Virus record (IMG/VR): IMGVR_UViG_2690316286_000019
Location: 1 to 11,459 of that record
Origin: a virus
Lineage: Duplodnaviria > Heunggongvirae > Uroviricota > Caudoviricetes
Length of the DNA: 11,459 bases
Strand: one strand, 5' to 3'
Below are positions 5,478 through 7,692 of this stretch, piece after piece. A program made the position numbers and the translations under genes. The notes under the pieces were generated by a model. That model was not told the DNA's origin, did no database searches, and saw only the letters and a program-made list of their open reading frames with translations. The stretch's first letter is position 1; each line of letters begins with the position of its first letter.

Positions 5478-5777
5478 TTAGTCCTCCAAATCAATATCAA
5501 CCTGGTGGTGGGCAATGGTTTCAGCCATGTACCGGATGTGTTCTGCCATGCGCTCCTGAAACTCAACATCATCATCAAATGCGTGGCTGATTGCCTGTTT
5601 ATTGGCACCGTGGCGTTGCAAATGGTCGATGCAGAGCGATTCAAACAGGTGCTGAGGCAGACCTTTTTCCAGGTCGTCCGCCAGTTCCGTTTCTTTTTCT
5701 TCACGAACGATCTGCTGGTAGTGGCGAGCCCATGCCATTTCTTCAATACGATCAAAAATCGGGTAAGCGCTCATCAC
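5478..5777 (-). CDS. Small strongly acidic hypothetical protein (99 aa); candidate DNA mimic or nuclease inhibitor
   Basis: [43 protein letters not shown]...DIDLED with roughly 23 Asp+Glu against 9 Lys+Arg. Its start overlaps the upstream gene by 26 nt and its stop lies 5 nt from the ATPase start. Confidence 0.55.
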
Positions 5778-7692
5778 TGGTCACTCCAAAATTTTCAAGC
5801 TTGTTGGCAATCATCATTGCGATGTCAGGGATTGCAGGCGCATAGGCTATGCACGCAGGATTCGCACATAAACCGTAAACCGCCGCAATCAACACCTGTT
5901 TTTTCCAGTTGAGTTCATCTTCGCCAGTTTCATTATTGCTATCATTATGCTGATCGCTGCCAGCGTTCTCCGGTAACAAATCATCAGCTTTTTCCGTTTT
6001 CTTCGGCTCTTCTTCCTGTGCTTCATCTGGTTTTTTTTCGTCAAAAGTTTCCTGATAAGTTGCGTCTCCCATCACCGCGCCACAGTCAGGGCAGTTATCC
6101 TCGCCAGTCTGATTGCAGGGTGTTCCCTCCTCCGGTTCGCTGTTCTGGTGCTGTTTATCTTCAGTCTGTCGCACTTTATTTTCCGTTTTTTTGACTTCAT
6201 TTGAGGAGATATGATGACCGGGAATCCATTTCGGATCATTCGGGTCGCTAATCCCTTCAACAAATTCTCCGCGAGAGGCAGCCAGTAATTTGTCTGCATC
6301 GACAGGATTTTTGGGCGGAATGTTTTTCCGGGCTTCATGGAGTTCTGCCCGCAGTTCCTGATATTTCTCATCAACAGAATTTACCTGTGACTGAGCATCC
6401 AGCGGCTGCGTGTCCTGATGATGTTCAGTTGCATCCGGTTCCACTGTTTCAGCCGTTGCCTGTTCATCTGCCATTGCGCAAGATGGTTGCGGTTTTTCTT
6501 CATCATCCTGTTTTCCTTCTTCTGTTACACGCTGCGGCATCGGGGCAGAGGAGCGACCGCAGGCAATATCCACGATTTCCGGATCAGGGTTGGCATGATC
6601 GGTTTCAGTCAGTACCTTGTTCAGATATTCAGTGACGTGCGCGGGGATGACCTCGATCCCAATTGGTGCTTCTTTTACGGACGCAACCACGATGGCGCGG
6701 GAATAATCCAGCCCGCCAGGCATGGTGATGAATTTGTCGCGGAAAACAGAAAAGGGCGGTTTATTTTCAGCGATAATTTCCTCAATGCGTTTAGCGTGTG
6801 CCGGATGAAGGTTATAGATGTCCAGATCCATTGAACGGGCCAGTACGCCAGTGGCTACGTCGCGCGCCAGTGACGTCAGATCGTGTACGAAACCTTCGCC
6901 GCGATCGGTGAGGTTTCCGCCGCCAGCATTAGCACCGGAAGCCGTGCGAGTGATACGCGAAACACGATTTCCTTTCATCCACTCTTTTGTCAGCAGACCG
7001 CGATCGGTGTAGTTGGCATCCAGATATGCTTCGAAAAAAGCAGTCATCAGTCCCAGATTTGAATTGCCAGGATTAGGGAAAACTTTGTCAGTATCACGCA
7101 CGAGTTTGTGGAGGTCGCGAATCTCCAGCGGGTCGAGCAGACTGGTTTTATGCGAAACAGCCAGAGCAGTAACAGCCGGTAGTTCTTCATCCCGAGCAAT
7201 GTGTAATGCCTGGAGTTCGTCGCGTGAAACGTGCGTTACCGGTTTTTCGCTGCCGTGTTGCGCAAGCCAACGAATGGGCAGTTCCTGACCGGAAACTGGC
7301 AGGAGCATGTTCTCCTCAATTTCTGTCATGTCTTCGCCGTTGACGTTGGTATTGTCAGTGCTGGCTGGTTTGTCCTGAACAGAGGGAGAAGATGCGATAA
7401 ATACCATTGTGATGCCATCTTCCCCGCCTTTTTCGTAACGGTTGCAGAATTCCGTATCAAACACGCCTTCTGGTGGGAGGTCACCAACAACGGGCAAATT
7501 GACGCGAACAGGTTTTTTAAAGTCATCTTCATCGTAGCCAGCATCGTCAATCGCAACAGCACCACGGGAGATGGCAATGGATAATTTTTTCGCTTCAGCC
7601 CAGTAAAAACCGCCTTTAATACCGAGGCGTTTTCTTACTTTGTCATTTTTTGCTTCGTAATACAGTGGGTAAACTTGTTTATCGGTGCTCAT
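5752..7692 (-). CDS. RecE N-terminal-region-like protein with acidic Cys-containing central/C-terminal region and no exonuclease domain
   Basis: 646-aa ORF with a GAGGT Shine-Dalgarno upstream. Long stretches ([17 protein letters not shown]..., [13 protein letters not shown]..., [25 protein letters not shown]..., [19 protein letters not shown]) match my recollection of the N-terminal and central region of Rac prophage RecE (exodeoxyribonuclease VIII). After about ...SDxxxETGEDE the sequence diverges and stops about 40 aa later, so the RecE C-terminal nuclease domain is absent. Confidence 0.6.

Follow-up and report, generated by a model that had tools for sequence, protein, structure and literature searches.

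Can the N-terminal part of RecE be a protein in its own right, without the nuclease domain? This question was raised by an 11,459-nucleotide (nt) stretch of viral DNA (IMG/VR record IMGVR_UViG_2690316286_000019, Caudoviricetes; hereafter the window). A preliminary description, made from the sequence alone, had read the open reading frame (ORF) at positions 5752–7692 on its minus strand as a RecE-like protein that stops before the exonuclease domain, and had proposed an independent role for the N-terminal region. RecE and RecT are the workhorse of recombineering and direct cloning, yet two thirds of RecE have no assigned function, and the N-terminal region was still of unknown function in the 2023 reviews (PMC11611040, PMC11610958). 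We analysed the 646-amino acid (aa) product of the ORF, its relatives and their genomic contexts. It is almost certain that the product has the architecture described below and lacks the nuclease domain. Sequence comparisons make it highly probable that the ORF is maintained by selection, and so is functional. The best explanation overall, with about an even chance of being correct, is a selected nuclease-free RecE-N platform with a swappable C-terminal output, which is non-catalytic in this protein; the mode of action that we propose for it is more tentative.

End of the RecE homology

5752–7692, minus strand: nuclease-free RecE-N 'tail-type' ORF, 646 aa (ORF list; 100% identical to protein P0001, 78% to RecE 40–585)
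7126–7539, minus strand: PF06630 'Exonuc_VIII' match, aa 52–189 (hmmscan, E = 2.7e-36); no nuclease domain despite the name
5919–5920, minus strand: junction where RecE homology ends, aa 591/592 (tblastn and blastn end points, alignment A1)

BLASTP against K-12 Rac RecE (866 aa, from locus L001) aligned residues 48–591 of the ORF product with RecE 40–585 at 78% identity (E = 0), in agreement with the proposed match to the N-terminal and central region of RecE. Both parts of that region, PF06630 and the conserved core, were present, and a Cys-containing segment at residues 534–543 was common to the two proteins. PF06630 was the sole Pfam match. The nuclease domain PF12684 was not matched in the Pfam scan, and no PDB chain matched the product by sequence, hence none matched the RecE nuclease structure (approximately RecE 586–866; crystal structure cited in PMC11611040). 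The product covered positions 1–596 of the 877 in the NCBIfam RecE equivalog model (PRK09709/NF007259) and scored 1064.1 bits, below the curated whole-protein cut-off of 1269 bits. When the six-frame translation of the window was searched by tblastn with the RecE nuclease domain and RecT as queries (SEG filter off, E values up to 10), no remnant of either was found beyond RecE residue 585, and RecT was absent from the whole window. A frameshifted nuclease remnant was ruled out by the nuclease-domain search. The downstream gene was gam (PF06064, E = 8e-56), which is unrelated to the RecE nuclease or RecT. These results bore out the claim that the protein stops before the nuclease domain.

Because the catalytic domain is missing, 5'–3' exonuclease activity on double-stranded DNA is predicted to be absent. 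By three defining marks the product is not RecE: it lacks the nuclease domain, scores below the equivalog cut-off and has no RecT partner. It therefore should not be filed as exodeoxyribonuclease VIII. It was 100% identical to the Shigella sonnei protein P0001, whose name, 'RecE family exodeoxyribonuclease', is a mis-annotation. Other proteins of this tail-type form are likewise already public under misleading names; thousands of entries are not exonucleases despite carrying the name 'RecE family exodeoxyribonuclease' or 'exodeoxyribonuclease VIII', and prophage 'recombination system' calls resting on PF06630 are unreliable.

RecE homology ended at window position 5920 at the protein level (tblastn) and at 5919 at the DNA level (blastn), 20–50 bp from the breakpoint that the preliminary description had estimated near 5870–5900. 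Compared with K-12 recE, the gene was a mosaic. Its first segment (ORF nt 1–338, window 7692–7355) had no close K-12 match and was 94% identical to other recE alleles, nt 339–1467 (window 7354–6226) were 94% identical to K-12, nt 1468–1774 (window 6225–5919) were about 70% identical with indels, and nt 1775–1941 (window 5918–5752) were unrelated.

Close relatives, whose N-terminal ~590 aa were 80–88% identical, fell into three classes according to their precomputed Pfam architecture: PF06630 with PF12684, which is the canonical PD-(D/E)xK nuclease form (866–892 aa); PF06630 with PF16473, which is a DnaQ-like 3'–5' exonuclease form (~814 aa); and PF06630 alone, the tail form (646–683 aa). All three split at one point, just after '...ETGE' (RecE 585; alignment A1). 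The proposed mosaic breakpoint stood as a junction but not as a single truncation event: the alignments indicate a recurrent domain junction with three alternative C-terminal modules, rather than one recent truncation.

The gene resembled Rac recE in its early-left operon position near xis and int, in the 94% DNA identity over the central 1.1 kb, and in encoding the PF06630 region, core, acidic linker and Cys-containing segment. It differed in that a 55-aa helical tail replaced the PD-(D/E)xK domain, gam and an AAA_24 ATPase gene followed instead of recT, and one Cys was missing. The DnaQ-like proteins (e.g. P0106, 814 aa; annotated by PGAP as '3'-5' exonuclease' or 'exonuclease') shared the N-terminal ~590 aa (84–88% identity in the closest cases) and the junction, and had a DEDD-type exonuclease domain in place of the tail.

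Two further observations were made on the junction variants. The DnaQ-like fusions formed a large class, annotated simply as 'exonuclease' and encoded by the last gene before xis and int (loci L013, L016–L019, L021–L027, L029, L031, L032, L035–L037, L045, L049, L065–L067, L070, L074 and L079). Another protein, P0122 (703 aa), was an in-frame RecE-N::RecT fusion, with PF06630 at aa 2–178 and RecT-family positions 39–187 at aa 528–678; the nuclease domain and the start of RecT had been deleted.

A conserved tail beyond the junction

5785–5919, minus strand: conserved C-terminal helical hairpin ('tail'), aa 592–636 (tail alignments, predicted helices, low substitution ratio)
5752–5784, minus strand: variable acidic tip and stop codon, aa 637–646; overlaps the gam start; not conserved in phage POCJ13

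A HMMER scan of 1.84 billion cluster representatives yielded 227 relatives, and the 90 of at least 330 aa (50%-identity clusters) were classified by their C-termini. The tail was found in 21, the RecE nuclease in 19 and the DnaQ-like domain in 14; the other 36 had no recognisable C-terminus. Tail homologues occurred on bodies that were only 20–40% identical to the query. They shared the motif L-[TS]-[YFW]-x-QQL-x-x-AA-x-x-G-[LM]-C-[AS]-N-P ... [DE][DE]-[IL]-P-x-[MI]-A (with W/Y before x-QQL in the feature list), and six columns were invariant (A12, A13, G16, C18, N20 and P21; alignment A3). In the ORF product, as in the tail-type group, the hairpin stopped within about 10 residues of the stop codon. 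The ORF product is thus a member of a coherent tail-type subgroup of the RecE-N/YdfE superfamily.

We estimated the ratio of non-synonymous to synonymous substitution rates (dN/dS) by the Nei–Gojobori method for the window gene against three other tail-type genes. With short segments and four genes, dN/dS was 0.13–0.34 in the tail, 0.10–0.20 in the conserved core and 0.39–0.62 in the preceding linker, which points to purifying selection on the tail. The gam start overlapped the end of the ORF by 23–26 nt. Hairpin residues 592–636 are encoded upstream of that start, and therefore the overlap cannot explain their conservation.

The tail-type architecture was also present in the complete phage genomes POCJ13, 75/02 Stx, phiSTEC1589-Stx1c and PhiR5_2. 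A tail-based scan of IMG/VR gave 105 loci, and a profile hidden Markov model of the tail matched 80 IMG/VR loci. Of 5426 complete E. coli genomes, 106 contained tail-coding DNA, O104:H4 2011C-3493 among them, whereas 3829 matched at least some part of the ORF. The POCJ13 protein (AHZ95173.1, 682 aa, named 'exodeoxyribonuclease VIII') was tail-type throughout and had gam directly next to it. Overall identity to the window protein was 56–86%, and tail identity 73–80%, for the proteins of POCJ13, 75/02 Stx and phiSTEC1589-Stx1c and for the 657-aa forms. POCJ13-type loci differed from the window in carrying bet and a lambda-type exo in the place of the AAA_24 gene, and their proteins in keeping the full CxxC...CxxC motif; the POCJ13 protein lacked the acidic tip.

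Could the protein be a decaying remnant, in which a gam module replaced the 3' part of recE together with recT, leaving 55 fortuitous residues and no function? The window, with its IS1 element and truncated ipaH-type gene, belongs to a prophage of the Shigella type, sister copies are IS4-disrupted or truncated, one Cys of the Cys motif has been deleted, and the RecE-N::RecT deletion fusion P0122 shows that such accidents happen. Against this, the tail keeps its invariant residues in proteins of only 20–40% identity and its dN/dS is low, the architecture recurs in complete Stx phage genomes and in the 105 IMG/VR loci, and the 646-aa frame is unbroken and was found again in many assemblies of Shigella and E. 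coli. We therefore regard a remnant as very improbable. Conservation in distant relatives, the low dN/dS and the occurrence in complete phage genomes rule out a fortuitous read-through; the 55 residues past the junction are instead a conserved module. The proposal of an independent N-terminal role was strengthened by these data, with 21 of the 90 representatives and the 105 IMG/VR loci being nuclease-free and the tail apparently under purifying selection.

The hydrophobicity of the tail raised another possibility, that it anchors the platform to the inner membrane. In the window protein, the tail contained a 19-residue stretch with a mean Kyte–Doolittle value of 1.72, within ~31 uncharged residues flanked by K/R and N/K. 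Diverged homologous tails gave values of 0.5–1.3 and had the acidic [DE][DE][IL]P loop in the middle of the segment; in addition, the invariant G-x-C-A-N-P turn and two short AlphaFold helices fit a soluble hairpin. A membrane anchor is hardly credible on these grounds, and we rejected it since the diverged tails are not hydrophobic.

The tail was not seen on unrelated proteins: among 5.8 billion proteins, a tail-profile search whose candidate selection favoured short sequences hit only short fragments from its own family. A tblastn search of the phage collection with the 55-aa tail gave no match, although POCJ13 clearly has the tail, probably because the low-complexity filter masked the query. 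Neither the core profile nor the tail profile matched any PDB sequence. In Serratia quinivorans prophages, a stand-alone 79-aa ORF consisting of little beyond the tail (L084, 5001–5240) was observed on 9 contigs.

N-terminal body, linker and relation to YdfE

7384–7692, minus strand: N-terminal alpha/beta domain, aa 1–103, the variable part of the family (AlphaFold)
6493–7017, minus strand: conserved family core, aa 226–400 (alignment A4, confident model, low dN/dS, hhalign to a YdfE_N/YdfE_C protein)
5920–6492, minus strand: long acidic linker, aa 401–591, mostly disordered, with helices at 440–473 and the highest dN/dS
6082–6117, minus strand: degenerate zinc-ribbon-like motif with three Cys, aa 526–537 (CxxC-x7-CxxC in relatives)

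An AlphaFold2 model of the ORF product was built with a 91-sequence alignment (mean predicted local distance difference test score, pLDDT, of 77). The N-terminal domain (aa 1–103), unlike K-12 RecE but matching other recE alleles, had a pLDDT of 84–98, and aa 112–400 had values above 90. Residues 400–437 and 493–591, including the Cys motif, were disordered (pLDDT below 50), with helices predicted at 440–473. The tail hairpin consisted of helices at 592–610 and 612–634 (pLDDT 60–76). The confidently predicted fold of the N-terminal 400 aa matched no solved structure. A Foldseek search of the PDB with the model returned ParB-family DNA-binding domains (SopB 155–272, Spo0J) at non-significant E values of 5–9 and probabilities below 0.1, which is a weak lead for DNA binding and not evidence of it.

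The core contained the motifs RTxSGxxAGGGNxTDR, DxDIYN, PGxLDYSRA and LTExDH and 24 invariant columns, many of them polar. The ORF product (first row of alignment A4) carried all 24.

The Cys-containing segment noted in the preliminary description is shared with RecE but is not a feature of the whole family. The CxxC-x7-CxxC motif was found in only 7 of the 90 representatives, and it is an optional insert of the Escherichia-like subgroup. We rejected a zinc ribbon as the family-defining feature for the same reason. In the window protein, a 9-nt in-frame deletion relative to K-12 recE turned CNACGQTGGDNCPDC into a shorter 12-residue segment, aa 526–537 (blastn, alignment A1). The Cys lost here was retained in the 657-aa and POCJ13 tail-type proteins, in K-12 RecE and in the DnaQ-type relatives.

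The core also linked RecE to another prophage family. A 638-aa protein of Enterobacter asburiae carried the precomputed Pfam domains PF27430 (YdfE_N) and PF27432 (YdfE_C). hhalign of the RecE core profile to this protein gave a probability of 96.7% (E = 4.6e-10), and many diverged tail-type proteins matched a YdfE-like seed and the RecE core alike. Thus, the N-terminal region of RecE and the YdfE family of the Qin prophage appear to form one superfamily. The precomputed Pfam entry for the cluster of the window protein lists only PF06630, and the core alignment indicates a common superfamily, not membership of the YdfE family. The window protein resembled the YdfE family in its remote core homology and in the gene position before xis and int; it differed in having no BLASTP similarity to the E. 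asburiae protein and a different N-terminal domain. We found no functional literature for YdfE and Qin, as judged without full texts, and no mention of PF06630 in the searchable literature.

In the E. asburiae protein, the tail lay in the +1 frame after an A7 run, and intact relatives read straight through (L086, 4950–5165). A mutation, a sequencing error or slippage could account for this frameshift.

Genomic context, possible role and neighbouring genes

We examined 76 species-representative loci and three references (K-12 Rac, POCJ13 and E. coli FDAARGOS_944). All genome-scan loci were from Enterobacteriaceae, except for two metagenome bins labelled Proteobacteria and Veillonella, suggesting that the RecE-N/YdfE family is restricted to Enterobacteriaceae. 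A RecT-family gene lay directly 3' of the nuclease-type genes in 36 of 37 loci. The DnaQ-type genes were directly followed by xis and int in 23 of 24 loci, the remaining one having no recognised downstream gene; neither an annealing protein nor gam was found in any of the 24. An integrase gene came directly after the diverged tail-type genes, both in the genome loci (3/3, excluding L060, which had too little downstream sequence) and in IMG/VR (15/15). No Gam, RecT, Bet, lambda Exo, AAA_24, RecE nuclease or DnaQ-like sequence was detected by tblastn within ~8 kb on either strand of the four diverged tail-type genome-scan loci, and the diverged IMG/VR tail loci showed no recognisable Exo downstream.

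Escherichia-type tails were different. In IMG/VR, gam always adjoined them, mostly followed by bet and a lambda-type exo; in about six loci of the subtype seen in the window, an AAA_24 ATPase gene came after gam instead. The 657-aa forms of Rac-like prophages in E. coli and E. albertii had the order gam, bet, exo, lar, DUF1187, xis, int. A lambda-Exo-specific docking site was considered for the tail and rejected, as neither the window nor the four diverged genome-scan tail loci contained Exo.

With RecT in 36 of 37 nuclease-type loci and no annealing protein beside the DnaQ-type or diverged tail-type genes, only the PD-(D/E)xK form is tied to RecT. The platform itself occurs without any recombinase and needs no annealing protein. 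These prophages without a nearby nuclease or annealing protein further supported an independent N-terminal role. No description of the nuclease-free architecture, the shared junction, the tail motif or the restriction of RecT to the nuclease form was found in the searchable literature.

How might such a protein act? We propose that its N-terminal body (aa 1–400) is a self-sufficient unit for target recognition, probably binding a DNA structure or a protein of host or phage DNA metabolism. The acidic linker (aa 401–591) would act as a tether and the C-terminus as an exchangeable output module. In the tail-type protein this output would be non-catalytic, as a 45-aa amphipathic hairpin could hardly be a catalyst. 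The hairpin would most likely make a protein–protein contact with a putative partner, either by self-association or by docking. Self-association is attractive because the RecE nuclease domain, which occupies the same slot, forms a toroidal tetramer (PMC11611040, PMC11610958); the hairpin would then replace the oligomerisation normally provided by the nuclease domains. The tail-type protein may thus be a nuclease-free accessory factor of the early-left operon, co-produced with Gam, with which its frame overlaps, and with the downstream AAA_24 ATPase. Linear–linear recombination is boosted by full-length RecE and not by the nuclease domain alone (Fu et al., 2012, as described in PMC11611040 and PMC11610958), which fits a role of the N-terminal region at DNA ends. 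Selected nuclease-free versions let the RecE platform be studied free of nuclease activity, and the tail offers a defined 45-aa handle for finding partners.

Several points weigh against this picture of a selected, non-catalytic platform. In Shigella and E. coli, several sister copies are truncated or carry insertion sequence (IS) elements that disrupt them (L003, L005, L006, L090 and L091), and therefore the gene is dispensable for the host. The prophage in the window is probably cryptic, and the 9-nt deletion costs this copy one of the four Cys of the CxxC-x7-CxxC motif. The strict co-occurrence of Escherichia-type tails and gam may reflect shared ancestry rather than function. Finally, 'non-catalytic' has been established for the C-terminus only: the core has conserved polar residues (T, D, R, H, Y, D, S, R, E and H) that could form an active site, and an enzymatic or ligand-binding site in the core is conceivable.

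A broader version of the platform explanation is possible, if doubtful. RecE-N and YdfE would be one unrecognised family of enterobacterial early prophage proteins with its own activity and an orphan fold, to which nucleases were added secondarily, and the tail-type protein would be the bare functional unit. Such a unit could act in the synapsis or protection of DNA ends, or bind a host complex involved in DNA repair or defence, and the GxCANP hairpin could be a new interaction module. If RecE-N does have its own activity, the role of the 'mystery 600 residues' of RecE is a separable one, which would also explain the need of full-length RecE for linear–linear recombination in the experiments of Fu et al. 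(2012), as far as the reviews describe them.

The same contexts might also be read as those of a host-takeover or anti-defence factor. The platform would recognise a host nuclease or defence complex, the C-termini, either of two exonucleases with opposite polarity or the binding hairpin, would be alternative ways to neutralise it, and the tail-type protein would do so by binding alone. Two of the three architectures occur without an annealing protein, the early-left operon neighbours include host-interaction genes of the kil, ydaE, gam, lar and sieB types, and the RecBCD inhibitor Gam always adjoins Escherichia-type tails. Moreover, the high mosaicism, the variable N-terminal domain and the narrow taxonomic range (227 representatives among 1.84 billion) suggest an arms race. 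However, PADLOC gave no match, and literature and structure searches gave no connection to any defence or anti-defence family. Canonical RecE has a proven function as a recombination exonuclease, coupled to RecT, and the sole N-terminal phenotype reported (Fu et al., 2012, in the account given in PMC11611040) concerns recombination. We consider a host-takeover factor unlikely, though a serious rival, and retain the selected nuclease-free platform as the preferred explanation.

The genes directly downstream of the ORF were assigned as follows.

5478–5774, minus strand: gam, GamS-like host-nuclease inhibitor, 98 aa (PF06064; phrog_259)
4375–5472, minus strand: AAA_24 ATPase, 365 aa (PF13479, 52.5 bits against a cut-off of 27; phrog_1366; weak match to Sak4-like phrog_124)

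The window comes from a Rac-like or lambdoid prophage of the Shigella/E. coli type and covers its early-left end. The minus-strand order was a Rha/Ash regulator, a YdaE-like gene, a small ORF, the target ORF, gam, AAA_24, DUF1187, two excisionase-like genes and an integrase, which places the target ORF among the last early-left genes before xis and int, as in related loci. The AAA_24 gene sits where the sister Rac-like prophage loci L080–L083 have bet and exo, and together with gam it suggests a Gam plus Sak4-like recombination module. The window was like lambda Red in its GamS-like Gam (78% identical to POCJ13 Gam) and in the operon position of gam. It was unlike lambda Red in having Gam only: tblastn with POCJ13 Bet and Exo found neither Bet (PF03837) nor Exo (YqaJ/PF09588) in the window. 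We know of no RecE-N-like gene upstream of gam in lambda.

Additional features of the window were recorded. The AAA_24 ATPase had a C-terminal extension of ~180 aa without family assignment. A 198-nt tandem duplication (8606–8803 and 8805–9002, 95% identical) surrounded a single N at 8804 and broke up the Rha/Ash regulator gene into a pair of overlapping ORFs; one E. coli genome had a match to the window that ended exactly at 8803, and the duplication may be an assembly join rather than biology. Beyond the Rha end, IS1 insA and insB (9936–10633, plus strand) were directly followed by a run of 21 N (10639–10659) that marks a scaffold gap, and the prophage is thus interrupted upstream of the Rha gene. 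Just outside the integrase end, a truncated IpaH-type type III effector gene (521–1765, minus strand, with an N at 614) encoded LRR_TTSS, further LRR repeats and the first half only of the NEL E3-ligase domain (model positions 2–121 of 223).

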